Assembly: GCA_038065955.1 (NCBI GenBank)
Contig: JBBTPY010000001.1
Location: 92,061-156,060 of the forward strand
Direction: 5' to 3'
DNA length: 64,000 bases
From: Patescibacteria group bacterium
GTDB lineage: Bacteria > Patescibacteriota > Minisyncoccia > UBA6257 > UBA9933
Part shown: positions 9,134 through 54,543 of the stretch, piece after piece
Position numbering within the stretch: position 1 is the stretch's first letter
Layout of the letters: each line of letters starts with the position of its first letter
Made by a program: the position numbers and the translations under genes
Notes under the pieces: generated by a model
What the model was told of the DNA's origin: nothing
The model's input: the letters and a program-made list of their open reading frames with translations, nothing else
Databases searched by the model: none

Positions 9134-9150
<17 letters not shown>
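8788..9150 (-). CDS. rplM: 50S ribosomal protein L13
   Basis: 120 aa uL13-like: [24 protein letters not shown]. Confidence 0.9.
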
Positions 9151-11275
<2,125 letters not shown>

Positions 11276-15826: not shown

Positions 15827-17998
15827 TTATTCCAGATGAATTTCTTCTTTAAAACGCTCAAGGCGCGCTTTAATTAACGGATAATTTTTAAGCAGAGGGT
15901 CTTTTTCAAATATTGTTTCCGCGGCCCGGCGGCTGTCTTTGACCAAATCCGGATTTTGAACAGCTTTCATCGCCAAATCAGGAATGCCGGCCTGCGTTTC
16001 GCCCAAGAATTCTCCCGGTCCGCGAATCGCCAAATCTTTTTCGGCAAGCTCAAAACCGTTTTTCGCCTCCAATAAAGAACGCAGTCTTTTGCGGGTTGTT
16101 TGCGAAGAAGAATCCGTAAAAAGAAAACAAAATGATTGGTGTTCTCCCCTGCCAACGCGGCCGCGAAACTGATAAAGCTGAGCCAATCCGAATCTGTCAC
16201 TGCCTTCAATAAACATAATCGTCGCGTTCGGCACGTCAACGCCAACTTCCACCACTGAAGTTGAGACCAAAATATCAATTCCGCCGTCTTTGAATTTTTT
16301 CATTATTTCCGTTTTTTCTTTGGCCTTTATTTTACCGTGAAGCATCACGACTTTTAAATCTGGAAAGATTTTTTGCGATAGTTTTTCATATTCCTCTTTG
16401 ACCGCTTTGACTTCAAGCCACATTCGCCTGCGAAAATCAATCTGTAAAGTTTCATCATTTTCAACTCCGGTTTCATTTACCGGCGCGGATTCTATTCTTG
16501 GACAAATCACAAAAACTTGCCGTCCTTTTTTAATCTGGTCGCGAATAAATTCATACGCTTTATTTCTGTCCGTCGGCGCCACAATTTTCGTAATTATTTC
16601 TTTTCTATTTTTCGGCAATTCATCAATAATGGATAAATCCAAATCGCCAAAAATAGTCAAAGAAAGCGTGCGCGGAATCGGCGTCGCCGACATACTTAAA
16701 AAGTGCGGAATTAATTCATTATTTTTAAGCAATTCAGCCCGCTGACGAACGCCGAAGCGATGCTGTTCGTCAATCACCGCAAAAACTAAATTATTGAATT
16801 TTACGTATTTTTGAATAAGCGAATGAGTGCCGAATACGATTTTTATTTTGCCGCTTGATATTTCTCTGACAATTTCGCTTTTTTTAACGTCGCTTTCCAA
16901 ATCGTCGCCGTAAAAAACTTTTGCGACCGAAGAAGTGATGATACCGACGCCTCCGTTAAAATCGGAAAAGAAAATCTTGAAAGTATTATAATGCTGTTGC
17001 GCCAATATTTCGGTCGGCGCCATAAAAGCGACTTGCCCGCCGGTAGGCATGGTCCGCCCATTATTTTTAACCGCGGATAAAGCGGCGAGAATTGCCACAA
17101 TTGTTTTACCCGAACCGACGTCGCCCTGCAATAATCTGTTCATCGGATGAGACTTTTTCAAATCCTGAATAATTTCCCATAATGATTTTTTCTGGGAATG
17201 CGTCAATTCAAACGGAAGTTTTTTAAATAATTCTTTTATTTCTTCCAAATCAATTTCAACGGCATGCGCTTTTTCTTCCGCCAAACGCGCGCGCTGGCGA
17301 ATATTAACCAGCTGCAAGAAAAACAAACTTTCAAAAGAGAAGCGTTTTTTAGCGTTAACCGCCTCTGAAATATTCTCGGGAAAATGAATCGCCTGAAGGC
17401 TGGTTTTTAAATCGGTAAAATTAAATGATTTTAAAATTTCTTCGGGCAAAAAATCTTCCAAAAAACCAATCTCTTTCAAGAGCGGCTGAATCAAAAACCG
17501 AAACATTTTTGAAGTAAGGCCTTTTGTTTCCGGATACACCGGCACGATTCTGCCGGTATGTTTTAATTCACTTGTATCTTTTTTCAAAGATGTAATTATT
17601 TCATGAATCGGATGCGAAAGCGCCAAGCCATTTTGCGATTCAACTACCTTTCCGGCCAAATTAACGATTATCCCTTTTTTAATTACTGTTATTAAAAATC
17701 TCTGATTAAACCAAACCGCGCGAATAGAACCGCTGTCGTCTTTCACTAAGGCCTCAATAATAAACATTCTCTTTTTCCATGTTTTCCACATCTTCACCGA
17801 AACGATTTCGCCGCGAATTACGGCGCGCTGTCCGATTTTTAAATCGCCGATTTTAGAGATATTTGAAAAATCTTCATAGCGAAAAGGAAAATGCCAAAGC
17901 AAATCCTTGATGGTTTCTATTTTAATTTTTTTCAAACGCTCAAGAGTTTTCGCTCTGGCTCCTTTTAATTGAGAAAGAGGAGTTGATAATTCAATCAT
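15827..17998 (-). CDS. recG: ATP-dependent DNA helicase RecG
   Basis: Wedge domain plus SF2 helicase motifs (GDVGSGKT, DEQHRFG); start trimmed to MIELSTPL because the longer ORF would overlap the tRNA at 18006-18077. Confidence 0.9.
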   Translation of the reverse strand: MIELSTPLSQLKGARAKTLERLKKIKIETIKDLLWHFPFRYEDFSNISKIGDLKIGQRAVIRGEIVSVKMWKTWKKRMFIIEALVKDDSGSIRAVWFNQRFLITVIKKGIIVNLAGKVVESQNGLALSHPIHEIITSLKKDTSELKHTGRIVPVYPETKGLTSKMFRFLIQPLLKEIGFLEDFLPEEILKSFNFTDLKTSLQAIHFPENISEAVNAKKRFSFESLFFLQLVNIRQRARLAEEKAHAVEIDLEEIKELFKKLPFELTHSQKKSLWEIIQDLKKSHPMNRLLQGDVGSGKTIVAILAALSAVKNNGRTMPTGGQVAFMAPTEILAQQHYNTFKIFFSDFNGGVGIITSSVAKVFYGDDLESDVKKSEIVREISSGKIKIVFGTHSLIQKYVKFNNLVFAVIDEQHRFGVRQRAELLKNNELIPHFLSMSATPIPRTLSLTIFGDLDLSIIDELPKNRKEIITKIVAPTDRNKAYEFIRDQIKKGRQVFVICPRIESAPVNETGVENDETLQIDFRRRMWLEVKAVKEEYEKLSQKIFPDLKVVMLHGKIKAKEKTEIMKKFKDGGIDILVSTSVVEVGVDVPNATIMFIEGSDRFGLAQLYQFRGRVGRGEHQSFCFLFTDSSSQTTRKRLRSLLEAKNGFELAEKDLAIRGPGEFLGETQAGIPDLAMKAVQNPDLVKDSRRAAETIFEKDPLLKNYPLIKARLERFKEEIHLE

Positions 17999-19713: not shown

Positions 19714-21294
19714 TTACTTCACATAATACTTCTTTTTTATCTCTGCTTCAATCCCCCCTTCAAATTCTTCCTTCTTTTCACGGCTAATTCTTGCCGATTT
19801 TTCAAGTTCAGCGTCCGATAATTTCCCTAAACTTTTAATTCTAAATTCCAAATTCTCTTTCGTGTTTTTTTCGGGATTTTCAATAACTTCATCCAGTAAA
19901 ACGGACAAAATCCAACCGATACGCGGACCCGGCGCAATGCCTAAAATTTTCATCACGTCTTCGCCGTTGACTTTCAGCATTTTCGGCGAAATCGGGTCTT
20001 GTTTCACTTTTTCAATCATAAAAAGCAGATGTCTTAATTTATAAGGCACGGCTTTCGGCACGCCGGAACCGATTCTATCCGCTTCGCGAATCTTGATTAA
20101 ATCGTTAACGTTTTCCGGGCCCACGCGGGCCAAAAATCTACGAACTCCGGCTTCCGTCACTTCGCCGACATTGTAATAAAAAAGGTGGCAACGGACCAAA
20201 TGAACGACTTTCTCCGCAATTTCTTTCGAAAAACGCAATCTATCCATCGCGGCCGCCGTTATTTTCGCGCCGACAACCTCGTGATTGTAAAAAGTGCAAT
20301 CAGGTCCTTCGCCGGCTTTAGTCCGAGGCTTACCGATATCGTGGAACAAAGCGGCTAAGCGAATCTCCAAAGAATAATTTTTCTTGACGGCGTAATCCAA
20401 AGCGCGCAAATTATGCTCCCAAATCGTGTAAATATGGTGCTTATTCTGGCCATTGCCTATTCCCTCGCGCAAATCCGGCATAATGTATTTCAACAAACCC
20501 GCCTCTTCAAGCAATTCAACTCCATTTTTCGCCGACGGCGTCATTATTATTTTTATAAACTCATCGCAAATCCTTTCTTTGGCTATCATTTCAAGCAACC
20601 CGGCTTCTTTTTTAATCGCTTCCATCGTTTTTTCTTCAATCGCAAAATTAAGCTGAACCGCGAATCTCACCCCCCGCATCAGCCGCAAAGCGTCCTCGTT
20701 AAAACGCTTTTCGGAATTCCCGACGGTGCGAATTATTCTATTTTTTAAATCTTCCTGTCCATTATAAGTATCAATAATTTTGAATTTTGAATTGTAATTT
20801 TGATTTTTGATTTTTGATTTTTGAATTTCTATTGCCATGGCATTTATAGTAAAATCCCGCCTGCTTAAATCTTCTTCAATAGTCTTGGCGAATTTAATCT
20901 CATCCGGATGCCTTTTATCCGTATATTTGCCCTCTAATCTGAATGTTGTTATTTCAACGACATTCAGCGCAGAACTACGCTGACTTGACGCTGAATTACG
21001 CTGAATTTCTTCTGCGTCTTTCTGCTTACCATCTGTGAGAGTCTGCGGTTTTAGTTTCACTAAAACAGTACCGAATTTATTTTCATAAACGGTGTCGGCA
21101 AAAATTTTCTGGATTTCTTCCGGTTTTGCGTTTGTGGCGACATCCCAATCTTTTGGTTCGCGATTCATTAAAATATCCCTTACGCACCCCCCGACAAGAT
21201 ATGCCTGAAAATTCGCTTTTTGTAATTTTTCAGATATATTTATAACTTCTTCGGGGATACTCGTCCTGAATTTTATTGAAGGATTGAAACTCAT
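19714..21294 (-). CDS. cca: CCA-adding tRNA nucleotidyltransferase / poly(A) polymerase family with HD domain
   Basis: LVGGCVRDILMNREPKDWDVATNAKPEEIQ nucleotidyltransferase head, HD domain HDIGK; contains in-frame repeat-derived inserts (20778-20828, 20964-21008). Confidence 0.85.
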   Translation of the reverse strand: MSFNPSIKFRTSIPEEVINISEKLQKANFQAYLVGGCVRDILMNREPKDWDVATNAKPEEIQKIFADTVYENKFGTVLVKLKPQTLTDGKQKDAEEIQRNSASSQRSSALNVVEITTFRLEGKYTDKRHPDEIKFAKTIEEDLSRRDFTINAMAIEIQKSKIKNQNYNSKFKIIDTYNGQEDLKNRIIRTVGNSEKRFNEDALRLMRGVRFAVQLNFAIEEKTMEAIKKEAGLLEMIAKERICDEFIKIIMTPSAKNGVELLEEAGLLKYIMPDLREGIGNGQNKHHIYTIWEHNLRALDYAVKKNYSLEIRLAALFHDIGKPRTKAGEGPDCTFYNHEVVGAKITAAAMDRLRFSKEIAEKVVHLVRCHLFYYNVGEVTEAGVRRFLARVGPENVNDLIKIREADRIGSGVPKAVPYKLRHLLFMIEKVKQDPISPKMLKVNGEDVMKILGIAPGPRIGWILSVLLDEVIENPEKNTKENLEFRIKSLGKLSDAELEKSARISREKKEEFEGGIEAEIKKKYYVK

Positions 21295-26400: not shown

Positions 26401-27715
26401 TGATATTTGCATTTTGAATTGTTAATACCCTTTCATATTTCGCCAATCTTTCCGGTTTGGCCGGCGCGCCGGCTTTTATTCCCCAAGCGCCGACGCCAAT
26501 TGCCAAATCAGCTATAAAATCATCAAGCGTCTCCCCGCTTCGATGACTGACAATCGCCTGCCAATTATTTTCATAAGCGAATTTTATCACTTTTAATGTT
26601 TCAGTTAAGGTTCCTATTTGGTTAGGTTTTATTAAAATCGCATTACCGGATTTTTTATTTATGGCGATTTTTAATCGTTCAATATTGGTTGTCGTTAAAT
26701 CATCGGCAATCACTAATTTTCCGCATTGTTCCGCGTTAGTTCCGTATAATTCCGTAGTGAGTAAAGCAAATGAACTAAAATCTTCTTCATTAAACGGGTC
26801 TTCAATTGATAAAATATTATAAGTTTCAATAAGTTTTAAATAATAATTTTTTAATTCTTCCGCTGAGTATTTTTTACCGTCAACAATATAAAAACCGTCT
26901 CTATAGAATTGCGCGGCGGCAATATCCAGTCCAATCTTTAATGGATATTTATATTTTTCAATAATTTCAGCGAGACATTCGATTGCTTCTTCGTTGTTTT
27001 TAAACGGCGCGGAATAACCGGCTTCATCGCCTAAAAAAACATTTTCACTCCCAAATTTATCCTTCAAATAATTTCCCAGTTTTCTGTAAAAAATCTTGCC
27101 CAAACTGAAAGCTATGTTAAAATCGTCAACTTCGGGAATGACTTGGAATTCTTGAATTTCTAATTTTGATTCCCGATGCGTCGCGTGCGCGCCGCCATTG
27201 ATAACATTAAAAATTGGCCGAAGCAAATTTTTTGACTTACGACCAACAACCAACGACTGATGACTTATATAATTAAATAGTTCTAATCTTTCGTTTTTTG
27301 CCTTCAGCCGCGCAAATGCCAAAGATAAAGATAAAATCAAATTCCCACCGAGATTGCTTTTAGCTTGCCCTGAGCTTGTCGAAGGGGCTTGCCCTGAGCT
27401 TGTCGAAGGGGCTTGCCCTGAGCTTGTCGAAGGGGCTTGCCCTGAGCTTGTCGAAGGAGTCCCGTCCAATTCAATTAAAAAATTGTCGAAATTTTCCTGT
27501 GATTCAAATTCATTTGATAATATTTTTGTCTTAATCTCTTCAAATTTTTTAAGCGCTAATTTTGGCTCCAAAACAAACGCCTCGTGCGTTCCAATGCTTT
27601 TGCCGGCCGGTGCGCTGGCTTTGGCTGAAAAATCTTCGCTTTTTAACTCCGCTTCCAAGGTATCTTTACCGCGAGAATCTGAAATGATTTTTATATTAAT
27701 GTCGCTGATTTTCAT
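26393..27715 (-). CDS. eno: Enolase
   Basis: Conserved enolase core; contains four in-frame tandem copies of STSSGQAP encoded by a 24-bp GC-rich repeat (27362-27456), inserted in the loop between LDGTP and the N-KS-LGAN segment. Confidence 0.9.
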
Positions 27716-27988: not shown

Positions 27989-30417
27989 TTTTTTTCTTTT
28001 TGATAAACTTTCTGCGTTGTTTTAATAATCGTATCCGAATTCAAAGAAATGCTGTTAATCCCCTGTCCCACCAAAAATTCGGCGAATCCTTCTATATCCG
28101 ACGGCGCTTGACCGCAAATTCCGATGTATTTGCCTTTTTCTTTGCATTTTTTGATAACTTCGGAAATCAATTTTTTTACTGATTCGTCGTTTTCATTAGT
28201 AATGCCGCGAATCATTTCATTGCCGTCACGGTCAATGCCGACAGTTAACTGCGTCAAATCGTTTGAACCAATAGACATTCCGTCAAAAATTTCCAAAAAT
28301 TCATCGGCTAAAATGACATTTGAAGGAATTTCACACATGACATATACTTTGACTTTTGACATTTGACTTTTGACATTTGACTCTAAAAACAAACCGTTTT
28401 TTTTCATAATTTCCAAAACTTTTTTGCCTTCTTCCGGCGTCCGGCAAAACGGCACCATTACTTCCACATTATCCAAGCCCATCTCCTCGCGGACTTTTTT
28501 AACGGCTTTAAGTTCCAAAATAAACGCCGCCGCGAAATTCGGATGATAATATCTTGAAGCGCCGCGCCAGCCGATCATCGGATTTTCCTCCGACGGCTCG
28601 TACAATTCCCCGCCGATAAGCGTTCTGTATTCATTTGTTTTAAAATCAGAAAATCTTAAAATTACCGGTTTCGGATAAAAAGCCGCGCCAATTTTCGCGA
28701 TACCGTAAGCGAGCTTATCAACATAAAATTGAGTTTTGTCTTTGTAGCCAATAATTTTTTTATCAATCGCGTTTTTAATTTTCGCCGGCATTTTTTTATA
28801 ATTTATCAAAGCATTTGGGTGAATCCCGATATCTCCGGCGATAATAAATTCTTCTCTCGCCAATCCCACGCCGTCATTCGGCAAAAAAGATTTTTCAAAA
28901 GCGGTTTCCGGCGTGGCAATATTAAGCATTATTTTAGTTTTCGGCCGCGACAATTTTTTAATATCGTGTTCAATTATTTTGAATTTTAAAGCGCCATCAT
29001 AAACAAAACCATCGCTGCCGGTCGTATCAACCGTAATCATTTGGCCAGTTTTTATTTTTCGAGTGGCGCTTTCCGAACCGACAATACAAGGAATGCCAAG
29101 TTCGCGGCTTACTATTGCCGCATGAGATGTTCGTCCTCCTTTGTCCGTTACAATCGCCGAAGCGATTTTCATAATCGGTTCCCAATCCGGGTCTGTCATA
29201 TCAGTAATCAAAATTTCACCGACCTTAAATTGTCCGATATTTTTAGCGCCTAAAATTACACGCGCCTTACCCGTTGCGATTTTACTTCCAACCGATGCCC
29301 CTTTGACTAAAACATTTAACCTTTGACCTTTAACATCTGACAAAATATATTCTTTTATTTTGGAGAAATCGCGGCTGGCATGTATAGTTTCCGGTCTTGC
29401 CTGGACAATATATAACTCACCCGTTTTCCCATCCTTTGCCCACTCCATATCCATTGGCGTCCATTTGCCGTTTTTTGTCGAATAATGCTCTTCTATTAAA
29501 ATCCCCCATTTTGCCAGTTTTAAAATTTCGTCATCGCTTAAAACAAAACTTTCTTTTTCTTTTTGAGAAGTATTAATTATTTTCGTATTTTTAACGGAAA
29601 CGCCTTTGCCTTCCGAATAAATCATTTTTTGATTTTTAACGCCGAGTTTTTTATCAATAATCGCATTAGTTTTTTTGAAAACTAAAAATTCATCCGGCGT
29701 CACTTCTCCTTGAACAATCATTTCGCCAAGTCCCCATGAACCGTTTATCAAAACCGAATCCTTAAAACCGGATTCCGTGTCCAAAGTAAACATTACGCCG
29801 GAACAGCTCAAATCCGAGCGAATCATTTTTTGAACGCCGACCGATAAAGCGACTTTAAAATGGTCAAATCCTTTATCGACGCGATAAGAAACGGCGCGGT
29901 CGGTAAAAAGCGAAGCCATCGCCGATTTTACCGCTTTCAAAACTTCTTTGTCTCCGCGGATATTCAAATAAGTTTCATGCTCGCCGGCAAAAGAAGCGCC
30001 GGGCAAATCCTCGGCCGTGGCGCTTGAACGTACGGCAACATCAACGTTTTTGCCGTATTCTTTCTCTGTTTGCCGATACGCCTTAACAATTTCTTGTTTT
30101 AAATCATCCGGAAATTCCGCTTTTTTTATCGTTTCGCGGATAAGTTTTCCACGCCTTGATAAATCTTTTAAATTTTTTGTGTTTAAACCGCTAAGCGCCT
30201 CTTTTATAAATTTTTTCAATCTCATTTCTTCTAAAAAATAGCGATAAGCTTCCGCAGTAACAACAAACCCGCCCGGAATCTTTACTCCCTGCCTGCCGGC
30301 AGGCAGGCTTTTCGGCGTTAAATTTTGAATCATTTCGCCGAGAGAGGCGTTCTTTCCGCCCACCTCGGCAATGTCTTTTATGCCGACTTCGTTTAATTTT
30401 TTGATGAAAATTTTCAT
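27985..30417 (-). CDS. ppsA: Phosphoenolpyruvate synthase (pyruvate, water dikinase)
   Basis: GGKNASLGEM ATP-grasp N-terminus, central phosphohistidine domain, C-terminal PEP-utilising domain; start at MKIFIKKLNEVG; in-frame inserts VKSQMSKVKVYVM (octamer repeats 28336-28384) and a 22-bp perfect palindrome (30287-30308). Confidence 0.9.
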   Translation of the reverse strand: MKIFIKKLNEVGIKDIAEVGGKNASLGEMIQNLTPKSLPAGRQGVKIPGGFVVTAEAYRYFLEEMRLKKFIKEALSGLNTKNLKDLSRRGKLIRETIKKAEFPDDLKQEIVKAYRQTEKEYGKNVDVAVRSSATAEDLPGASFAGEHETYLNIRGDKEVLKAVKSAMASLFTDRAVSYRVDKGFDHFKVALSVGVQKMIRSDLSCSGVMFTLDTESGFKDSVLINGSWGLGEMIVQGEVTPDEFLVFKKTNAIIDKKLGVKNQKMIYSEGKGVSVKNTKIINTSQKEKESFVLSDDEILKLAKWGILIEEHYSTKNGKWTPMDMEWAKDGKTGELYIVQARPETIHASRDFSKIKEYILSDVKGQRLNVLVKGASVGSKIATGKARVILGAKNIGQFKVGEILITDMTDPDWEPIMKIASAIVTDKGGRTSHAAIVSRELGIPCIVGSESATRKIKTGQMITVDTTGSDGFVYDGALKFKIIEHDIKKLSRPKTKIMLNIATPETAFEKSFLPNDGVGLAREEFIIAGDIGIHPNALINYKKMPAKIKNAIDKKIIGYKDKTQFYVDKLAYGIAKIGAAFYPKPVILRFSDFKTNEYRTLIGGELYEPSEENPMIGWRGASRYYHPNFAAAFILELKAVKKVREEMGLDNVEVMVPFCRTPEEGKKVLEIMKKNGLFLESNVKSQMSKVKVYVMCEIPSNVILADEFLEIFDGMSIGSNDLTQLTVGIDRDGNEMIRGITNENDESVKKLISEVIKKCKEKGKYIGICGQAPSDIEGFAEFLVGQGINSISLNSDTIIKTTQKVYQKEKK

Positions 30418-31323: not shown

Positions 31324-32913
31324 TTATTTTTTATTTTTCTTTTTCAGTTTCGGTTTTGACTTTGATTTCGGTTTCTTTTTATTGGACATAATTATTTTAT
31401 AATTTTTAAAACGACCTTTTATTAGTTCATTATTTGATATTTTTAATATTACCATCAAATCCGCCACATTGAAACATTTTTGCTCGGCATATATCAAGTC
31501 GCCGGTTTTTTTGAAGAAATTGAAAGAGTCGTGGTTTTTTAAAAATTCTTCCGGTTTTAATTTTAATTTTTTCGCTTTTTCCAAAGTCAAAGAATCGCCG
31601 ATAGCTCCGGCGGCCTCGGTATTGTCGCGAGCGTCTGAAGTAAAAGAAATAAAAACTGAATCCTGATACAAAGCATTTAACATTTGACATTTGACTAGCG
31701 CACCGAGCACTGCTTCCTGATTGCGCCCGCCTTTGCCCTGAACCGCGCCGAAGGGCTTGCCCTGAACCGCGCCGAAGGGCTTGCCCTGAACCGCGCCGAA
31801 GGGCTTGCCCTGAACCGCGCCGAAGGGCTTGCCCAATTCATAATTCATAATTCCTGCCTGCCCCGTAGCGAACTTGTTCTGCTTCGGGGATTCGTGATTC
31901 AAATTTACAGTCGTTTCTCCGGCAGCGATTAAAACTTCATTTGTCTTAATTTTCGCTATCATTGATGATAGCGCCGCGCTTGCTTCTCCTTCCAGCGCTA
32001 AGGAGTGAATTTTTGATTTAAAACCCAATTCTTCGGCTTTATTCATCATTGCCATAACCGCGTCCTGATTGCAGACAAATAAAATATTGTCAACTTTCTT
32101 AAAATATTTTTGCTCTTTAGGCGTTTCGCTTAAATGAAATTTTCCCGCGTCAATTCCGTATTTTTTCAAAATATTTTCGGCATCAATCTTAGTCGTTTTA
32201 TCAAAGACCGTCGGGCCGGAAGCAACCATTGATAAATCATTGCCGCAAACATCGGAAACAATCAAAGAAACGACTTTTGCCGGATAAGCTTCCATAGTCA
32301 GCCCGCCGCCCTTAAATCTCGCTCCTGACAAATGCTTGCGAACGGCATTAAGCTCTGAAATGGCGGCTCCTGATTTGGTTAATTCTTTAATCGCCGAAAT
32401 TGATTCATTAAGCTCGGATTCGGAAGCGCAAGCCAAAGCCGAACCGCCGCCGCAAATAAAAGTAATGAGTAAATCGTCTTTATTCAAACTTTTCGCCAGT
32501 TTAATGATTTCTTGAGTGGCAATAATATTTTGTTCAGAGGGGAAAGGATGAGTTCCCTTAAAACATCTGACATTTGACTTCTGACCTTTGACAATAAAAA
32601 TATCCAGCGCGATGCCGCGAACCAATTTTTCACCTAAAATTTCAGCCAAATTTGAAACCGCCAAAGCGGAACCCTTCCCGACACCGACAATGAAAATCCG
32701 CTTAAAATCGTTTAAATTAATTTTAAGCGAATTTTTGGCGCTACCGCTCGCGCCAACATATTCAATAATTTCTAAAACGCCGTTTTTTATCTTAATCCGG
32801 TTTTTAATGATTTTTTCAATCTCAATCGCCTCATAACCAGCCTCTGCGATTTGAAGCGTCTTTTTTCTTAAATCATTTTTCGCCAGATTTTTTAAATTAG
32901 TGATTATTGACAT
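31324..32913 (-). CDS. Glycerate 2-kinase, MOFRL family (GckA/TtuD-like)
   Basis: GVGKGSALAV, GGGSAL, GETTV and GGRNQE motifs; four in-frame tandem copies of GKPFGAVQ from a 24-bp GC-rich repeat (31733-31833); Lys-rich C-terminal tail. Confidence 0.75.
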   Translation of the reverse strand: MSIITNLKNLAKNDLRKKTLQIAEAGYEAIEIEKIIKNRIKIKNGVLEIIEYVGASGSAKNSLKINLNDFKRIFIVGVGKGSALAVSNLAEILGEKLVRGIALDIFIVKGQKSNVRCFKGTHPFPSEQNIIATQEIIKLAKSLNKDDLLITFICGGGSALACASESELNESISAIKELTKSGAAISELNAVRKHLSGARFKGGGLTMEAYPAKVVSLIVSDVCGNDLSMVASGPTVFDKTTKIDAENILKKYGIDAGKFHLSETPKEQKYFKKVDNILFVCNQDAVMAMMNKAEELGFKSKIHSLALEGEASAALSSMIAKIKTNEVLIAAGETTVNLNHESPKQNKFATGQAGIMNYELGKPFGAVQGKPFGAVQGKPFGAVQGKPFGAVQGKGGRNQEAVLGALVKCQMLNALYQDSVFISFTSDARDNTEAAGAIGDSLTLEKAKKLKLKPEEFLKNHDSFNFFKKTGDLIYAEQKCFNVADLMVILKISNNELIKGRFKNYKIIMSNKKKPKSKSKPKLKKKNKK

Positions 32914-33475: not shown

Positions 33476-36400
33476 TTAAATCTTCTTTATGCCGAGCCAA
33501 ATTTCTGAATCGTCAATTTTCGTTTCCGATTCAACGGTAAATTTATCTGTTTTCGCGAATTCAATTTTTTTGGCGCCCACTTCGGTTTTAAGATTCTCCA
33601 TATTCTTGCTTATCAATTTTTGAAAATAATCGTCGGCGTGAATATTTAAAATAATCACGTCTTTTGGAATAAAATCGGCTTCTTTGCGCAAATCTTGAAT
33701 GACGCGCGTCAATTCGCGCAATTGTCCTTCAGCTTTTAATTCCGGCGTAATATTTATGTCTAATTCAACATCGCTCGCGATATTTTTGTCAAAAATAATT
33801 TCTTTGACATTCACCTCATCTTTAATCAATTCCAATAATTCTTTATTATTCTTGATACCTAATACTTGATACTTGATACTTATTTTTGCGAGCGGCTGCC
33901 GGACTTTTATGCCCGATTTCTGCCGCGCGTCTAAGCCAAGCGAACAAATTTTCCGCGTTTCCGCCATCATCTCAATCAATTTTTTATCAATTTTCGGTTT
34001 ACCCGCCGAAGTTTTAACGAAGGCGGGCCATTTTTCTAAATGAACTGATTCTATATTTCTAACACCTGACACCTGACACTTGACACTTTGATACAACGTT
34101 TCGCTGATAAACGGCGCAAAAGGCGCGCTCGCTTTTGAAAATTCAGATAAAACAAATCGAGTTGTCGCAATGGCATTTTGCTTATCTCTGCCTTCTGTTT
34201 TAAATCTTTCACGCGAGCGCCTGATATACCAAGTGGATAAATCGTCAATAAATTCTCCAAGCGGCCGGCTGGCTTTATCAAGTTCGTAATTATCCATCGC
34301 CTCGGACACTTCTTTAATTAGTTGTTTAAGCCGCGTCAAAATCCAAATATCCAAAATATTTTTACCTGACACCTGACGCTTGACACTTAACACCTTCTTA
34401 TCCGCGTATAAATCGTAAAATTGATAAACATTCCAAAGACGCATAATTATTTTTTTATAAACCTCATCAACGCCTTTTTCGGAAAAATTCAAATCTTCTC
34501 CGCGCACCGCCGGCGATGACAAAAGATAAAGCCGCAATGCGTCGGCGCCGTATTTTCCAACAATCTCCATCGGGTCCGGATAATTTTTTAGACGCTTGCT
34601 CATCTTTTGGCCGTCTTCGGCAAGAATAATGCCGTTAACAATCACATTTTTATAAGCCGGCTTATTAAACAGCCCCGTTGAAAGAACTAAAAGCGTATAA
34701 AACCAGCCGCGCGTCTGGTCAATGCCCTCGGCGATAAATTCAGCTGGAAATCCGAATTTTTGATTATTCTCAAACGGATAATGCGCCTGTCCGTAAGGCA
34801 TTGAACCGGATTCAAACCAACAGTCAAAAACTTCCGGGACTCGACGCATTTCTCCGCCGCAGGAACAAGTAAATTTCATTTCATCAATATACGGCCGATG
34901 CAAATCAAGCTCATAATTTTGATTATGAGGAAGCGGAATAAAATCCAATTTTTTTACTTCTCCGGTTTTTATAAAATCATCTGATTTATTTATTCGTGTG
35001 TGCCCATTCGTTAAGGCTTTCGCATACTTAATTTCCACGGCTTTTTTCGCATCGGCGCCGACAGTGGCGGCAAAAAACAACCAAATCGGATACTCGTGAG
35101 AAACGATTAAAATATTTTTATTTTGATATTTATTTTCAATTTCATACAAAAATTCCGCGACCCGATTTTTTAATTCCGTAAGATTTTCGCCCTCCGGCGG
35201 CGTTTTATAAAATTTCTCTTCAAGCGGCGCGAAATTCCGGTATTCTTCAATTTTTTTCCCGTCAATAATTCCAGTATTGACCTCTCTTAACCGTTTGTCA
35301 AAAATTATTTTCCCTTCCCAACCGATTGCCTTTACGGCAAGCTCGGCGGTTTCTTTGGCGCGGCGAAAATCAGAGACGAAAATAAAATCAATTTTTTCTT
35401 TTTTTATTTTTTTTGCCACCGCTAAAACCTGTTTTTTCCCTTTTTCCGTAAGAGAAAATTTATCTTTATTTTTAACGCTTGTATTAACGACGCCTAACGT
35501 GTTATTTTCTCCTTCGCCGTGGCGCATCATAAAATATCTGTTGCCGGACTTTTCCGTTTTTCTTTTTATATCATCTAAAGAGCCGATTATTTCCAAATTA
35601 TCACATCTCTCGCATTTCCAAGCCGGCAAAGGCGCTCCCCAAAATCTTGAACGCGAAATCGCCCAATCGCGCGCCCCTTCCAGCCATTTGCCGAAACGGC
35701 CGTCCCTGATGTGTTTTGGTATCCAGTTTATTTTTTTATTATTGGCAATCAGTTTATTTTTTATCTCTTCAACTTTAACGAACCAAGAACTTGCCGCGTA
35801 ATTTAAAAGCGGCGTGTCGCAACGCCAACAATGCGGATAAGAATGGATAATTTTTTCTTTTTTGAAAAGTTTGTTTTCCTTGGCGAGCCATTTAATTATT
35901 TCAATGTCAGTCGCTTGCGAATTTTCTTTCGGTTTTACGGACAATCCGACGAAATCTTTTACTTCCGACTTAAATTTTCCGTCTATCCCAACGTGCTGAA
36001 TAAACGGCAAATTTTCTTTTTTCGCCAAATTCATATCGTCTTCGCCAAAAGCCGGCGCAATATGAACTATACCGGTGCCCTCATTAGTTGTTACAAAATC
36101 ATCGGCGTAAATTTTCCAGCCGTTTTCACAATTTTTTAAATTTTTATCTTCTGCGTAATAATTAAAAAGCGGTTTGTATTTTTTACCGATTAAATCTTTA
36201 CCTTTAATAGGCAATCCAATAAGAGTAGTTTCTCCTTCAAATGGAAATGTTTTTACTAAAAGATTTTCGGCAACAATAAAAAATTCGTTTTTTATTTTTA
36301 CTTTTCCATATTTAATATCCGGATTTACCGCAAGCGCCACGTTCCCCGGTAGCGTCCAAGGAGTTGTCGTCCAAGCTAAAACAAAAGTGTTTGGTTCATC

Positions 36401-39105: not shown

Positions 39106-40754
39106 TACATTTTTTTCGGCATACTTACGCCGAGCAGCCCGAATAAATTTTTAAAAATAACTTGCGTCGCTTTTATTAATTCTAAACGCGCCGCCATTAA
39201 ATTCTCTTCTGCGCCCATAATTCTTTCTTTTTCGTAAAAATTATGAAAAGTTTTCGCTAAATCCAAAGAATATCGCGCCAAAATCTGCGGATTATAATTA
39301 TTCGCCGCCTCTTTTATCACTTCCGAAAACCGCGCCAACTGTCTTATTAAATTTAAGTCCTCGTTAGTGCTTAATAAATCAAATTTAATCCTTGACTTTT
39401 GATATTTGACATTTGACTTCCGTAAAATACCACCGCATCTGACCGCCGCATATTGGACATAATAAACCGGATTTTTCATTGAACGCTCTTTCGCTAAAGA
39501 TAAATCAAAATTCATATGCGTATCCGATGAACTCATTAAAAAGAAAAACCTGGTCGCGTCCAAGCCGACTTCCTTGATTAAATCATCAAGCGTAATAAAC
39601 TCACCATTTCTCTTTGACATCTTCACTTCTTTGCCCTCTTTAATTAAGCGAATTAATTGAGTAATAATTACTTTAAATTTTCCGTCACCGTTTTCAAAAA
39701 TACTGAGCGCTTTTAACCCGGCGCGAAGCCGCGGCTCATAGCCGTGATGGTCCGCTCCCCAAATATCAATAACTTGAGTAAATTTCCGAGTTTTAAATTT
39801 ATTTAAATGATAAGCCATGTCCGGCAGAAAATAAGTCGGCTCGCCGCTCGCCCGCACCAACACTCTATCCTCGTTGTCGCCGAAATCTTTAGTCTTCATC
39901 CATAAAGCGCCGCCTTTTTCATAAACCAAATTTTTGCGCTTCAATTCGTCAAGTAATTTTTCAACCGCGCCGTTCTTATACAAACTCTCCTCGCTGAACC
40001 ATTTGTCAAAATTTATTTTCAAACCTTTTTCAATAAATTTTTTGTTGTCTTTTTGAATTTCCCGCGCCAATAAATTACCCGCTTTACCGTAATCCGTAAT
40101 ATTTTTAAGTTTTTCGCCTAAATTCTTAATTATTAATTCTAAATTTTTTGTTTTATAAATATTGCCTTCGCCAAGCGCTGTTTTGCCGAGTTCTTTTATT
40201 TGCGTGCTCGCTTTGGCATCATTGACATAATATTCTTTTACTACTTTATAACCGGCGAATTTCAAAATGTTCGCCAAAACATCGCCGAAAAATCCTCCCC
40301 GGCCATTGCCGATTGTTAACTGCCCGGTGGGATTGGCGGAAATAAACTCTATCTGAACTTTTGACATCTGACCTCTGACAGCTGACTTGCCGTAATTTTG
40401 TTTTTTCTTCAAAATCTCTTTTAATTCGTCTTGTAAAACTTTTTCCGAAATCCAAAAATTGATAAATCCCGGTGTCGCCACTTCAATTTTTTCAAAAAAA
40501 TCCCTTGCTATCATTGATGATAGCGCGGTTTTTATTTCTTCGGCTATTTGCATGGGATTCTTTCCGCGCAATTCCGCGTTTAAATCCGCGTTCTTCCGCG
40601 CTAATGTGGCGAGTTTTAACGCCACATTAGAAGAATAATGCCCAAATTGCTCATTCTCCGGAACGAAAACTTCTATTTCTATTTTTTCTTTAATAACTTT
40701 TTTAAGATAATCGAAAATTTTTGACTTAATCATTGTTTTCATTATAATTAACAT
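39105..40754 (-). CDS. argS: Arginyl-tRNA synthetase
   Basis: 549 aa; class I HIGH region and C-terminal DALR anticodon-binding domain; octamer-repeat inserts at 39392-39420 and 40359-40390. Confidence 0.9.
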   Translation of the reverse strand: MLIIMKTMIKSKIFDYLKKVIKEKIEIEVFVPENEQFGHYSSNVALKLATLARKNADLNAELRGKNPMQIAEEIKTALSSMIARDFFEKIEVATPGFINFWISEKVLQDELKEILKKKQNYGKSAVRGQMSKVQIEFISANPTGQLTIGNGRGGFFGDVLANILKFAGYKVVKEYYVNDAKASTQIKELGKTALGEGNIYKTKNLELIIKNLGEKLKNITDYGKAGNLLAREIQKDNKKFIEKGLKINFDKWFSEESLYKNGAVEKLLDELKRKNLVYEKGGALWMKTKDFGDNEDRVLVRASGEPTYFLPDMAYHLNKFKTRKFTQVIDIWGADHHGYEPRLRAGLKALSIFENGDGKFKVIITQLIRLIKEGKEVKMSKRNGEFITLDDLIKEVGLDATRFFFLMSSSDTHMNFDLSLAKERSMKNPVYYVQYAAVRCGGILRKSNVKYQKSRIKFDLLSTNEDLNLIRQLARFSEVIKEAANNYNPQILARYSLDLAKTFHNFYEKERIMGAEENLMAARLELIKATQVIFKNLFGLLGVSMPKKM

Positions 40755-41545: not shown

Positions 41546-41597
41546 TCTAATTTTAAATTTTAACCTTTAAAATAAAAATAATTTGAATAAAAACTCA

Positions 41598-41636
41598 ATT
41601 TCGGTTATTTCAACGATAGTTGAAATAACCGAAATT
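41598..41636. repeat. 40-bp palindromic repeat element, copy 1 (variant centre)
   Basis: aatttcggttatttcaacgatagttgaaataaccgaaatt; near-identical copies at 42408-42446 and 54400-54439. Confidence 0.85.
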
Positions 41637-41771
41637 GTAGAATACAAAAACTATCTGAATAACTATCTAAATACAAAACTATTTTTCATCGACAATATAT
41701 ATAAATTTATATAAAAATGTGAATATTCCACTTAAAAATAAATGCTTCCCGCTTTAAAAATTTCACTAATT

Positions 41772-42365
41772 TTATTTAATTCCGAATTTATTTTTCAAAT
41801 CTAAATCAATGTCTGTCTTTTTAGCAAGTATTATTCTGACATACGGCTTTAAATTAAAAATTTCCACGATAAAATCTATTTCATTTTGGCATTCGTAAGG
41901 ATAAATAAAAACGCTTTTTTGGAGCGGGTAAAACCCTAATTGTTTCAATTTAACCGCCAGCGCGTTTCTTCCCTGTTTAAGATGTTCAGGGATATCGAAA
42001 ATAACCATTCTCCATAATCCATCCCATTGCGACGGTTTTTTTATTTCTATTTTATCTAAATTGTATGTAAGCGCCCGCTTTTTTCCCTCGCTATTTAAAA
42101 CCAAAGTAATTGTATCATTATCATTTTCTTTATAATCAATTAATTTTGACCTGTATAGATTTTTAATCGCTTCGTGGAGGGTGCGTCTATTAATATCTTT
42201 CCATTCTTTTTTCATCCCATCAACAATTCTAAAATACGCATCCGGTCTTTGCGTTAAAGATAAAACCAAGCCGCCCTCCAATAGAAGAAGAATTTTTTGA
42301 GCCACTGGTCCTAATTGTAATCTTTTCCCCTTGTTTCTTTTTATAAAATTTTCATTTCTTTTCAT
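41772..42365 (-). CDS. PaaX-like regulator (winged-helix N-terminus plus Cas2-fold PaaX_C-like C-terminus)
   Basis: WDGLWRMVIFDIPEHLKQGRNALAVKLKQLGFYPLQKSVFIYP matches the PaaX C-terminal (Cas2-like) pattern; flanked on both sides by the 40-bp palindrome. Confidence 0.55.
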   Translation of the reverse strand: MKRNENFIKRNKGKRLQLGPVAQKILLLLEGGLVLSLTQRPDAYFRIVDGMKKEWKDINRRTLHEAIKNLYRSKLIDYKENDNDTITLVLNSEGKKRALTYNLDKIEIKKPSQWDGLWRMVIFDIPEHLKQGRNALAVKLKQLGFYPLQKSVFIYPYECQNEIDFIVEIFNLKPYVRIILAKKTDIDLDLKNKFGIK

Positions 42366-42407
42366 AAAAATCTTTTCATAAAAAATTATAAGAATTATAT
42401 CACATCA

Positions 42408-42446
42408 ATTTCGGTTATTTCAACGATCGTTGAAATAACCGAAATT
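42408..42446. repeat. 40-bp palindromic repeat element, copy 2
   Basis: aatttcggttatttcaacgatcgttgaaataaccgaaatt perfect palindrome, with shared flanks attatatcayatc... and ...gRctgaaacattaaa. Confidence 0.85.
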
Positions 42447-42447
42447 G

Positions 42448-42590
42448 ACTGAAACATTAAATATTCTCCTGTAAACCCCGTTAGAAGCTCACGCGAGACA
42501 TTAAACCCCGTGTTCGCTAAAACAACAGAGAGCATTCATCCCCGCGGCAAGCCACGGGACATTCTGCTTCTAACGGGGTAAAATTAATAA
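42448..42590 (+). promoter_or_regulatory. Highly structured ~120-nt leader upstream of smpB (candidate cis-regulatory RNA/sRNA)
   Basis: 13-bp outer stem ccccgttagaagc...gcttctaacgggg enclosing an inner cccgtg/cacggg stem; ends at the smpB ATG. Confidence 0.35.
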
Positions 42591-44872: not shown

Positions 44873-46621
44873 TTATTTTAACATAGAAAGCATTTTCTCG
44901 GCAGACCAACAATTAATAATGTCATTTTTTGCCGCCCAACCGCGGCGAGCCTGAAAAATGCCATATTCCATAAAATTCATTTGTTCTTTTTGATGGGCAT
45001 CCGTATTAATAATCATTTTAACGCCAATTTCTTTTGCCTTTCTAATGTTTTTATCATTTAAATCAAGCCTGTAAGGATTGGCGTTGATTTCCAAAATCGT
45101 GCCGGTTTCTTTGGCGACTTTTAAAATTTTAGCGAAATCAATCTCGTATTCGTCTCTTTGTTTCAAAATCCGGCCGGTTGGGTGGGAAATTATGTCAACA
45201 TTCGGATTTTCCATCGCCTTAATAATCCTTTCGGTCATTTTTTCTTTCGTCATTTTCATCTGCGAATGAACGCCGGCGATGACATAATCAAGTTTTGCCA
45301 GCGCTTCGTCGGAAATATCAATTGAGCCGTCGGATAAAATATTAGCTTCACAGCCGTGTAATACACGACATTTGACACCTGACATTTGACATTTGACATT
45401 AATTTTATCAATTTCTTTTCGTTGCTCCGCTAATTGTTTTTCGTCCAAGCCATGTTCAATCGCCAAAAACTTCGTATGGTCGGAAATGCCGACATATTCA
45501 TAACCCATCGCCATTGCCGTTTCAATAATTTTTTCAATCATCTCCGGTCCTTTGCCGCTCCCCCAATGCGAATGGCAGTGAAGGTCGCCTTTTATATCTT
45601 TCGGCCTAATAAGTTTCGGAAGACCGTTGGACTTGCCCTGAGCTTGCCGAAGGGCCGCCTCAATCTCGCCCTGATTTTCCCGGAGTTCCGGCGAAATCCA
45701 TCTAAGCCCCAGTTTTTCGTAAATTTCTTCTTCGTTTTCTCCGGCAATCATTTTCGCTCCGCGAAACAGGCCGTATTCCGAAAGTTTCAAACCTTTTTCA
45801 ATCGCGATTTTCCGCAAAACTATATTGTGCTCTTTGGAGCCGGTGAAATACTGAAGCGCGGAGCCGTAAGATTTTTCCGGAACCACGCGAATATCCATAT
45901 CATACCCATCTTCAAACCGAACCGAAGTTTTAGTTTTTCCTTTGCCCCAAATTTTGACGATGCCGGGAAGCGAAACGAAAAAAATCATCACTTTTTCCGG
46001 ATTATCGGAAACCACCAAAAAATCAACATCGCCTATCGTTTCTTTCCGCCGGCGAATTGAACCGCAAGCAACCGCTTTTTTCACTTCTTTGATTCCATTT
46101 AATTTTTTCTCTATTTCACCGACAAGCGGCAAAATTTCGCCGAGTAAAAACCTGCCTTTGTCTCTTTTTAAAAACTCTATTCCTTCCAGAATGTTTTTCT
46201 CCGTTTTTTCTCCGAATCCGAAGAGCGACGCGATTTTATGGGATTTGGCGGCTTTCTCCAAATCTTTCAGATTTTTAATTCCCAATTTTTCGTAAAGAAT
46301 TTTGGCTTTTTTCACGCCCATTCCTTCGACTTTAACGATATTGTCCAAATCAATCGGAATTTTCTTTTTAAATTTTTCATATTCTTTGATTTTTCCGGTT
46401 TTCAGATATTCTTCAATTTTCTTGGCGATTCCTTCGCCGACGCCCGGAATTTCTTTAAGCGCGTTTACGCCGCCTCTTTGATAAATATCTTTCACGCTTT
46501 CTTTTAGAGATTCAACCGCTATCGCCGCTTTTTGATAAGCGTACGGCTTAAAAGCCACGCCTTCCATCTCCAGATAATCGGCGAGTTCGTAGAATATTTT
46601 TGCGAGGTCTCGATTTATCAC
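44873..46621 (-). CDS. Family X DNA polymerase with C-terminal PHP domain (PolX)
   Basis: HhH motifs (GVGEGIAKKIEEYL), Pol-beta-like nucleotidyltransferase core (GSIRRRKETIGDVDFLV), PHP domain HCHSHWGSG...; repeat-derived inserts at 45366-45400 and 45631-45658. Confidence 0.85.
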   Translation of the reverse strand: MINRDLAKIFYELADYLEMEGVAFKPYAYQKAAIAVESLKESVKDIYQRGGVNALKEIPGVGEGIAKKIEEYLKTGKIKEYEKFKKKIPIDLDNIVKVEGMGVKKAKILYEKLGIKNLKDLEKAAKSHKIASLFGFGEKTEKNILEGIEFLKRDKGRFLLGEILPLVGEIEKKLNGIKEVKKAVACGSIRRRKETIGDVDFLVVSDNPEKVMIFFVSLPGIVKIWGKGKTKTSVRFEDGYDMDIRVVPEKSYGSALQYFTGSKEHNIVLRKIAIEKGLKLSEYGLFRGAKMIAGENEEEIYEKLGLRWISPELRENQGEIEAALRQAQGKSNGLPKLIRPKDIKGDLHCHSHWGSGKGPEMIEKIIETAMAMGYEYVGISDHTKFLAIEHGLDEKQLAEQRKEIDKINVKCQMSGVKCRVLHGCEANILSDGSIDISDEALAKLDYVIAGVHSQMKMTKEKMTERIIKAMENPNVDIISHPTGRILKQRDEYEIDFAKILKVAKETGTILEINANPYRLDLNDKNIRKAKEIGVKMIINTDAHQKEQMNFMEYGIFQARRGWAAKNDIINCWSAEKMLSMLK

Positions 46622-49519: not shown

Positions 49520-50563
49520 CTAGGATTTAGCCACCAGCGGAATTTGATATTTCGTCTCGCCCGCCTCAATAAAAGATTTTATATTCTCAATATCCGCGTC
49601 CAGAATCCTTTGAATTGCCTCTTTGGTGTTGAAAGCGTTATGCGGAGTAACGATGACATTCGGCATTTCCATTAAAACATGGTCTGCCAAAACCGCTTTT
49701 AAATTATGCCCCTCCGGATGGCCGTATAAAAGAAACGCCCGCTCGTCCTTGATAATTCCTTCTTCCTTTAAAACATCCGTGCAATATCCTCCTAAAATTC
49801 CGTCAGTTAAAGCTCTGACTATGTCCTCAATTTTAACCAAGCCGCCGCGGGCGGTATTAATTAATATAGCCCCTTTTTTCATTTTATTTATTTTTTCTAA
49901 ATCAATAAAATTGTGACTGGTTTCCGTATATGGAATATGAAGACTGATTACATCCGAATTCGCCAATAAATCATCGAGTGAAACATAAGAAAACCCAATT
50001 TCTTTTGACAAAATTTCATTGGGATAAGCGTCATAAGCCAAAACATTCATCCCAAAACCTTTGGCAATTTTTACCATAAATTTCCCGATTCTGCCGACGC
50101 CGACAATACCGATTGTTTTCCCGTTCAAATCAAAACCCTGTAAACCGTCAAAAGAAAAATTTTCATCTTCTTTAACGCGGCGAACAGCCTCAAAAATTTT
50201 CCGTGAAAAACTTAATAATAAGGCGAAGGCGAATTCCGCCACCGTATTATCGCCGTAACCGGGCACATAACCGGTTTTAATGCCGCGCGCCTTGACTATC
50301 TCCAAATCAATATGATCAAAACCAGTGGAACGAGTGGCAATAAGTTGAAGATTCGGAAAAGCGTCAATAACTTCTTTTTTTACTTCAGAACCGACAAAAA
50401 CCGAAACAGCGTCAAAATCCGCTTGTCCTGAGCTTTGCCGAAGGATTTCCGGCAAATTATCTTTATTTAATTTTGCCTCGCTGAAAGACAATTCAATGTT
50501 TGGCAAACGCTGTTTTACATATTCCGCTTCCCAAGGTTCTATTTCAAAAAAAGCTATTTTCAT
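49520..50563 (-). CDS. D-isomer-specific 2-hydroxyacid dehydrogenase (D-lactate/glycerate DH-like)
   Basis: NAD-binding GIVGVGRIGKFMVKIAKGFGMNVLAYD, catalytic R/E/H region; 24-bp GC-rich insert at 50421-50446 encoding RQSSGQAD. Confidence 0.85.
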   Translation of the reverse strand: MKIAFFEIEPWEAEYVKQRLPNIELSFSEAKLNKDNLPEILRQSSGQADFDAVSVFVGSEVKKEVIDAFPNLQLIATRSTGFDHIDLEIVKARGIKTGYVPGYGDNTVAEFAFALLLSFSRKIFEAVRRVKEDENFSFDGLQGFDLNGKTIGIVGVGRIGKFMVKIAKGFGMNVLAYDAYPNEILSKEIGFSYVSLDDLLANSDVISLHIPYTETSHNFIDLEKINKMKKGAILINTARGGLVKIEDIVRALTDGILGGYCTDVLKEEGIIKDERAFLLYGHPEGHNLKAVLADHVLMEMPNVIVTPHNAFNTKEAIQRILDADIENIKSFIEAGETKYQIPLVAKS

Positions 50564-54324: not shown

Positions 54325-54399
54325 ATATTTTTATTATGAATAATAATATTAATAAATAAAAAATTGAAAGTCAAGATTATATCATAATTATATCATATC

Positions 54400-54439
54400 A
54401 ATTTCGGTTATTTCAACGATCGTTGAAATAACCGAAATT
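54400..54439. repeat. 40-bp palindromic repeat element, copy 3
   Basis: Identical to copy 2, including flanks tatatcatatc... and ...ggctgaaacattaaa; intergenic between rpsP and smc. Confidence 0.85.
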
Positions 54440-54543
54440 GGCTGAAACATTAAAAACATTAAATGTTCTTCTGTAAAATTATCTGTAAAATTATCTGTAA
54501 AATTAATAAATGATTATATCTTTATGTATTAAAAGTGTTTCTT

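Follow-up and report, generated by a model that had tools for sequence, protein, structure and literature searches.

The superfamily of repetitive extragenic palindromes (REPs) tagged with CGTC includes the Rickettsia palindromic elements (RPEs) RPE-4 and RPE-6 and the Neisseria repeat dRS3 (Di Nocera et al, 2013; PMC3733652). Intragenic copies are reported in several species, no dedicated transposase was found and head-to-tail dimers are called 'negligible' (PMC3733652). Here we describe a short GC-rich repeat in a 64,000-nt window, the whole stretch of DNA analyzed, from an ultra-small groundwater Patescibacteria group bacterium (UBA9933; assembly GCA_038065955.1, contig JBBTPY010000001.1, positions 92,061–156,060). 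Its 24-nt units lie in-frame in the genes for enolase (eno), glycerate 2-kinase (glxK), a family X DNA polymerase (PolX) and a 2-hydroxyacid dehydrogenase, and we regard them as probably REP-like elements, selfish or neutral, that protein loops tolerate and that have been amplified locally.

Relation to described repeat systems

CGTC REPs share with the present family a format of 20–40 nt imperfect palindromes with an 8–9 bp stem and a 4–5 nt loop (PMC3733652), occurrence in several phyla, and some in-frame genic copies, often in repair genes and pseudouridine synthases. An 8–9 bp stem is found in the extragenic members of our family; the window copies keep 4–5 bp. The CGTC tag (CGTC/TGTC/CCTC) is paralleled on many extragenic copies by CGTTC, TGTCA or CCTCA, which accompany AT-C CTGAG stems. 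The window copies differ in carrying (G)CTTG in place of the tag, in starting with CC and in lacking A/T first stem pairs; they occupy four loci in 64 kb, all genic and either head-to-tail or single, whereas CGTC REPs are mainly extragenic and mostly form head-to-head dimers. The core CTGAGCYTGYCGAAG was not found in the text or supplements of PMC3733652, nor do the peptides in its supplement contain SGQA, RQAQG or FDKLR; by back-translation only, CGTCATTCTGAGCTTGT... could encode one Sulfurovum CGTC-2 peptide, RHSELVSGS (PMC3733652). Among described repeats, the units resemble short REPs of the CGTC type.

GTAG REPs and REPINs, which are linked to RAYT (IS200/IS605-like Y1) transposases, resemble this family as short hairpin repeats that form inverted doublets and abound between genes. 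The window units differ from them in having no GTAG at their ends, and among the 40 open reading frames (ORFs) of the 64-kb window there was no Pfam match to Y1_Tnp/RAYT or any other transposase. Miniature inverted-repeat transposable elements are defined by terminal inverted repeats and target site duplications at a length of 100–400 bp; the present unit is 24 nt long, enolase shows no target site duplication, and the hexamer GGYAAR stands on both sides of the insert only at glxK.

Elements of the RPE-1 type, which Ogata and colleagues are said to have described in 2000 and 2002, reportedly measure about 100–150 bp, form long stable hairpins and are confined to Rickettsia. Like the window units, they are repeated palindromic DNA, richer in GC, that interrupts conserved genes of a reduced genome in-frame, sits where the protein surface can accommodate it and is translated. 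The window units differ in their 24-nt length, their 4–5 bp stem, their often tandem arrangement and their membership of a family shared across bacteria, the comparison being one of description and not of sequence. In-frame insertion at tolerant positions is thus common to both, and a long stable hairpin of 100–150 bp is absent here. A preliminary description of this DNA had assigned RPE-like behavior to the units. Because the behavior of RPEs and intragenic REPs is indeed seen, with in-frame GC-rich repeats in loops of conserved genes, that reading holds; the parallel stops at the weak palindrome, the 24-nt size and the lack of genome specificity.

As in in-frame variable number tandem repeats, the window arrays consist of identical head-to-tail units with a period that is a multiple of 3 and a copy number that varies between close relatives (eno and glxK each occur with 3 and with 4 copies, a difference in which short-read collapse is possible). 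They depart from the usual loci of that type in that the unit is a dispersed cross-phylum repeat, not a locally born one, and in that the hosts are housekeeping enzymes and not surface antigens. The GC clusters of yeast mitochondria are likewise GC-rich palindromic mini-elements in an AT-rich compact genome, some of them in-frame in coding sequence. The likeness ends there, since the host system is unrelated, the sequences show no relation and the route of mobility is different and poorly known.

A literature search with DNA and peptide strings, and for candidate phyla radiation (CPR) bacteria in combination with palindromic or in-frame repeats, found no description of these units. RPE and intragenic-REP behavior is already known. 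What appears to be new is a family with a cross-phylum core, in-frame head-to-tail arrays with a 24/25-nt split, exclusively genic placement in the window, and a recurrent enolase site conserved at the nucleotide level.

In-frame units in four conserved genes

Tandem Repeats Finder (TRF) reported two arrays of period 24 and 100% identity, comprising 4.0 copies in eno and 4.2 copies in glxK (Table 1). The consensus of the preliminary description, allowing up to 3 mismatches, gave 5 matches in the window and 0 in 100 shuffles. A looser core pattern recovered exactly 10 units at four loci, all on the + strand: four in eno, four in glxK and one each in PolX (core at 45638–45652) and the 2-hydroxyacid dehydrogenase gene (50428–50443). 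Together with the matching translations, these scans bear out the earlier claim of 24-nt units lying in-frame in the four genes. The core spans 15 nt in the eno and PolX units and 16 nt in the glxK and dehydrogenase units, and period 24 is built in two ways, as a 15-nt core plus a 9-nt linker in eno and as a 16-nt core plus an 8-nt linker in glxK. All four host genes lie on the − strand, and the same strand of repeat DNA is translated in all three frames. The units reach 62–71% GC, in keeping with the ~65% given previously; the host value of ~36% does not stand, the window having 39% GC at a coding density of ~78%.

All four segments are, judged from alignment, insertions relative to orthologs or solved homologs, being absent from most of the former and from the latter, which is the comparison that the preliminary description had called for. 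At the enolase site, 109 of 121 orthologs read LDGT[PE]NKSNLG and the window protein has 30 extra residues; a 98% identical protein carries one unit fewer, and the alignment to M. jannaschii enolase (PDB) splits exactly at the insert. In an AlphaFold2 model (mean predicted local distance difference test score, pLDDT, of 85.8), residues 91–117 form coil with pLDDT <50 between helices 73–84 and 124–141, and the insert is therefore predicted to be a disordered loop. The closest named relatives are Wolfebacteria and Paceibacterota.

The glxK array immediately precedes the conserved GKGGRNQE, and the whole 47-residue stretch before this motif is missing from a syntenic relative (L122) and from PDB 2b8n. 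This stretch is composite, running from a GGCAGGC-type fragment through a heptamer repeat to the four units; single-copy related units occupy the same site in two other lineages (P0129 and P0143). In PolX, the conserved GEIEAAL is followed by 6 added residues, RQAQGK, which lie in the linker leading to the PHP domain and are extra relative to Thermus thermophilus PolX (PDB 3au2) and almost all of 60 inspected representatives (150 retrieved). The dehydrogenase has 5–7 extra residues in an N-terminal loop compared to PDB 5z20 and 5z21. The reading frame is kept and a loop or linker is occupied in all four cases, as had been proposed, according to the ortholog and PDB alignments and, for enolase, the AlphaFold2 model.

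Array period and reading frame

We scanned metagenomes for the junction of two tandem units; the counts that follow cover arrays among the matches listed. Period-24 arrays lay in open frames of ≥200 aa in 22 of 27 cases (median frame 406 aa), and period-25 arrays in 0 of 21 (median 102 aa; Fisher p = 3e-9). The hosts of the genic arrays include ThiC, a molybdopterin oxidoreductase, PilM, GvpL/F and a GH63-like hydrolase, and 20 of the 22 use the PSTSSGQA frame. One 25-nt array was located between two genes of a 150-kb contig of 37% GC. The split between periods 24 and 25 implies translation of the genic copies and a filter on their frame.

This split also bears on the idea that the units are intervening sequences, removed from mRNA or bypassed by the ribosome in the manner of mitochondrial translational bypassing elements. 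Within AT-rich genes, the units stand out as structured islands of high GC. CPR bacteria are, moreover, known for insertions in their rRNA genes. Removal would, however, make both a multiple of three and an open frame needless, and the units have no conserved splice-like or take-off and landing features and fold weakly; we hold this explanation to be very improbable.

Dispersal of the family across bacteria

In a scan of one genome per species, the 19-mer CCCTGAGCYTGYCGAAGGG was found at ≥120 loci spanning most bacterial phyla; those listed include Proteobacteria, Actinomycetota, Bacteroidota, Cyanobacteria, Chloroflexota, Acidobacteriota, Planctomycetota, Nitrospirota, NC10, several CPR classes and others. 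It also occurs in ≥120 viral contigs. Extragenic loci often hold several copies, often as inverted pairs, and singles and head-to-tail arrays are seen as well. Copies in Bacteroidales and in a proteobacterium are clearly intergenic, and in genomes below 50% GC only 3 of 33 copies fall within open frames of ≥200 aa (30 of 33 outside). From these matches, the family is not specific to this CPR genome; it is pan-bacterial and elsewhere mostly extragenic. All four window loci, in contrast, are genic, an outcome with a chance of 35/66045 (~5e-4) given 7 genic copies among 37 in total; the coding density of the window alone would yield it with a probability of 0.37. Other CPR classes also have in-frame copies, in a leucyl aminopeptidase of Saccharibacteria and a DJ-1 protein of Peribacteria. 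In a Coxiellaceae genome (L077, 1325–1365), a CCCTGAGCTTGTCGAAGGG unit is nested within the loop of a GTCATCCTGAG...CGAAGGATC unit.

A recurrent insertion site in enolase

An SGQA-type insert sits at exactly this position in 12 of 121 enolases, which fall in about eight scattered places on a neighbor-joining tree. The tree suggests some eight independent gains, a number not robust enough to claim. Thr and Lys are separated by 8 codons in one junction class and by 9 in the other; in one lineage (L126), an inverted second unit is nested within the insert. Across eight lineages sharing 61–75% amino-acid identity, the insert reads YYT TCG RCA RGC TCA GGG CAA GYN. Enolases that are 86–95% identical are mosaic alleles between which the insert-bearing segment has been exchanged by recombination. 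We considered a single ancient insertion spread by recombination and rejected it: synonymous sites flanking the insert differ between insert-bearing lineages, and recent transfer of one allele can thus not explain the enolase pattern. Near the enolase gene of one relative (L123, 9971–10912) we observed a pair of neighboring RVT_1 (reverse transcriptase) ORFs together with an AbiEii gene.

The conserved core and its putative hairpin

The conserved part of the family is a 15-nt, sometimes 16-nt, core (CTGAGCYTGYCGAAG) closed by 2–3 variable, complementary bases. CTTGCCC and GGGCAAG, previously taken for the arms of a palindrome, are not arms on one strand; the sole self-complementary part is (G)CCCT...AGGG(C), of 4–5 bp. 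Loci were re-scanned with the 15-nt core alone, so that the flanks were not fixed as CC..GG, and among the resulting 49 copies the two closing positions pair in 46 and 43, versus 27.7 and 21.1 with shuffled partners. The pair types are diverse (GG/CC, TG/CA, TC/GA, CA/TG, TA/TA). Within the core, C-G, U-A, tandem G.A/A.G and G-C pairs would extend the stem to a 5-nt loop, CYUGY.

Folding strength differed between settings. A single unit folded as DNA reaches −4 kcal/mol (z −1.3). Neither it nor the eno array, the latter as DNA or RNA, folds better than its shuffles (z −1.3 to +1.0); the glxK array as DNA is the only window fold that does (z −2.7). Extended extragenic copies, for their part, fold strongly (z −3.4 to −4.9). 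Hammerhead-like and k-turn readings of CUGAG...CGAAG were rejected by inspection, the required core positions being absent. Rfam contained no family scoring at its gathering threshold, and E-value thresholds gave sub-threshold noise only (an Aggregatibacter sRNA model).

Array dynamics and assembly support

Copies are identical within an array but not between the eno and glxK arrays. Since internal identity combined with a difference between arrays points to local amplification, the tandem copies are best explained by that process and less well by repeated insertion, as far as their sequences tell. The eno/glxK copy combinations are 4/4 in the window and 4/3 in L001, and 3-copy forms of both occur in records whose longest contig is 164 kb. 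The window enolase is found again on a Hainich aquifer contig (ENA ERZ1292636), and the 4-copy glycerate kinase on seven contigs, including a 695-kb contig (ENA ERZ1286166, contig_106), in which the array is identical, and the NCBI metagenome-assembled genome GCA_964355445.1. The name of the 695-kb contig and its split gene calls suggest a long-read assembly. On it (L372, 3628–5590), AhpC and PPDK are each split into several gene calls, although the window holds both genes unbroken; indel errors left uncorrected in long reads are the apparent cause.

That the arrays are assembly or sequencing artifacts, from collapsed or chimeric reads, is hardly credible, for although copy number is 3 or 4 depending on assembly and a 96-nt array approaches the span of short reads, the same inserts recur in independent samples and assemblers (ERZ1292636, ERZ1286166, GCA_964355445.1), the 4-copy glxK array is unchanged in the 695-kb contig, and single-copy versions, all in frame, exist in many other lineages and datasets.

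Insertion mechanism and competing explanations

The junctions offer a lead on how units arrive. The empty glxK site reads GGT AAG|GGC and the filled site GGT AAG [CCC TTC GAC GCG GCT CAG GGC AAA] GGC, a gain of 24 nt bounded by GGYAAR, a hexamer that also bounds units within arrays. In PolX, the GCC CTT of the element coincides with the conserved Ala-Leu codons of EAAL, leaving a net gain of 18 nt. As the PolX and glxK junctions match pre-existing codons resembling element ends, we propose that units may insert independently of a transposase, by microhomology-guided template switching or ectopic patch repair. Only copies adding a multiple of 3 nt, free of stops and placed in tolerant surface loops would survive, to be translated as short, hydrophilic, disordered segments. 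Thereafter, replication slippage or unequal exchange between identical units could expand and contract the arrays, which would produce perfect 24-nt arrays and make copy number differ from one strain or assembly to another. With respect to its host, we take the element to be most probably selfish or neutral.

Several observations weigh against this reading. Neither microhomology nor a target duplication is clearly visible at the enolase junction. Genic copies have a weak hairpin, and a mechanism driven by hairpins is thus not an obvious option for them. All eight enolase lineages use the same insert codons TCG, TCA and GGG, of which TCG and GGG are minor codons (17% and 13%); in the rest of the gene, invariant columns are codon-identical in only 3 of 53 four-fold and 3 of 40 six-fold cases (about 6–8%). 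As read from these alignments, a decaying neutral insert does not predict such nucleotide-level conservation, which calls for recent or repeated insertion, homogenization from other copies, or selection on DNA or RNA. Copy-number differences could partly reflect short-read assembly collapse, and the analysis covered 64 kb of the genome and a few relatives, so that a transposase could lie elsewhere in the genome.

A rival reading takes the core hairpin to be a functional DNA or RNA signal for a widely conserved protein, e.g. the target of a topoisomerase, nucleoid protein, ribonuclease or recombinase; selection on the nucleotides would then retain the genic copies, with the peptide as a by-product. 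One 15-nt core with covarying closing pairs recurs across phyla, synonymous positions of the insert are invariant in the eight enolase lineages while the flanks drift, and variation is confined to the two Y positions of the putative loop. Yet the outer closing pairs are often broken in genic copies (CGAAT, CGAAA, AG for GG), which also fold no better than shuffled sequence, most orthologs lack the insert, copy number varies freely and Rfam holds no matching family. On balance we consider a dedicated signal unlikely.

We are equally doubtful of a bolder proposal, that the G.A hairpin core may be a nucleic-acid motif recognized throughout bacteria, which spreads without a transposase by microhomology template switching and re-colonizes, or is re-homogenized at, the same protein loops of independent lineages. 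Insertion would then proceed into sites whose conserved codons resemble element ends (GCCCTT, GGCAAG). If true, this would explain the invariant synonymous enolase sites, the nested copies and the hot spots shared by unrelated CPR mini-repeats.

Selection on the encoded peptide is a quite improbable alternative. PSTSSGQA-type flexible linkers or loops would here be tuned in length by repeat number, like a contingency locus, for instance as modification sites or, if the enolase of an episymbiont moonlights, as loops in contact with its host. The preference of the listed genic arrays for the single frame encoding PSTSSGQA fits this, as do the polymorphic copy number and the enolase loop, predicted to be disordered between helices of the N-terminal domain. 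The window, however, reads the same DNA in three frames, giving unrelated peptides, the hosts are unrelated cytoplasmic enzymes, and DNA of identical sequence often lies outside genes; the frame bias is explained equally well if purifying selection removes peptides that are less tolerable. The reading we favor remains that of a REP-like repeat, selfish or neutral, which loops tolerate and which is amplified locally.

Further repeats and features

The window contains other mini-repeats (Table 1). Heptamers, (GTCAAAT/GTCAGAT)n, form a second in-frame family, AT-rich, in PPDK, glycerate kinase, IleRS, ArgRS, PolX and RNase HII; three units of 7 nt encode 7 aa, giving NVKCQMS-type peptides. A second GC-rich palindromic family, with the core GCCTGCCGG[CT]AGGC, lies in-frame in four places: in an RluA-type pseudouridine synthase (21 nt x2, ACLPVGM), in RecG (RTMPTGGQV), in PPDK (SLPAGRQG) and beside the glxK array (TGQAG). 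The perfect 43-nt palindrome CAATTTCGGTTATTTCAACGATCGTTGAAATAACCGAAATTG occurs three times, two copies flanking a PaaX-like ORF and the third lying upstream of SMC; it may serve as an operator or terminator, or mark the boundary of a mobile cassette. In the gene for a CCA-adding enzyme/poly(A) polymerase, (AAATCAA/AATTTTG)n is in-frame and encodes KSKIKNQNYNSKFKI, and KIKNQ strings like it fill the glxK loop of the relative L126.

Among enolase and glycerate kinase orthologs (P0002–P0240), many other short recurring insert peptides were observed at a few loop hot spots in this CPR clade, among them YPHKSASNQ, VPAEALAKEG, KMNYELGIM, RQPTTNDQ, ESPTQNCVGD, RINTDKNISINQ and TSWLW; one hot spot sometimes holds different insert families in different lineages. 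In EF-G, the GTP_EFTU match covers residues 8–300 for a 188-position profile, leaving ~100 residues unaligned, which may be the usual G' insert or possibly more. A k-mer census of the window for further GC-rich families was dominated by codon bias.

Table 1. Positions of repeat units, host genes and other features in the window.
Feature	Position	Strand	Details
Enolase array, four perfect tandem 24-nt units	27363..27457	-	+ strand GCTTGCCCTGAGCTTGTCGAAGGG; peptide PSTSSGQA x4 (TRF, translation)
Glycerate kinase array, 4.2 perfect tandem 24-nt units	31733..31834	-	+ strand TTGCCCTGAACCGCGCCGAAGGGC; 16-nt core variant; GKPFGAVQ x4
PolX single unit	45632..45655	-	+ strand CTTGCCCTGAGCTTGCCGAAGGGC; ALRQAQGK; exact consensus match; polymerase-PHP domain linker
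2-Hydroxyacid dehydrogenase single unit, 16-nt core	50421..50446	-	+ strand GCTTGTCCTGAGCTTTGCCGAAGGAT; LRQSSGQA; N-terminal loop
Host gene, enolase, 440 aa	26393..27715	-	Pfam Enolase_N/C, PDB matches
Host gene, glycerate 2-kinase (DUF4147 + MOFRL), 529 aa	31324..32913	-	Pfam; PDB 2b8n
Host gene, family X DNA polymerase with PHP domain, 582 aa	44873..46621	-	T. thermophilus PolX 3au2 alignment
Host gene, D-isomer-specific 2-hydroxyacid (D-lactate) dehydrogenase, 347 aa	49520..50563	-	PDB 5z20, 5z21 alignment
Heptamer repeats, first five	28348-28382, 29311-29341, 31674-31695, 32563-32593, 34062-34086
Heptamer repeats, remaining five	34364-34395, 39392-39417, 40362-40386, 45367-45400, 62389-62414
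GCCTGCCGG[CT]AGGC family	3513-3557, 17028-17061, 30283-30318, 31855-31866
43-nt palindrome, three copies	41595-41637, 42406-42448, 54398-54440
PaaX-like ORF	41772..42365
(AAATCAA/AATTTTG)n repeat	20776-20828
EF-G	9134-11275

Implications

REP-type selfish repeats, normally 'extragenic', can reside within core enzymes in the smallest free-standing bacterial genomes, which have little room between genes. Selection visibly sorts these repeats by period, with 24 nt inside genes and 25 nt outside. By marking where loops of enolase, PolX, glycerate kinase and numerous further proteins tolerate extra residues, the inserts amount to a natural insertion scan, and the arrays provide strain-level length markers for uncultivated CPR populations. 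The units also explain odd low-complexity peptides across metagenomic protein databases, where they inflate and disturb homology searches. Finally, the many filled and empty sites make the insertion mechanism of a cross-phylum core with no known transposase testable.

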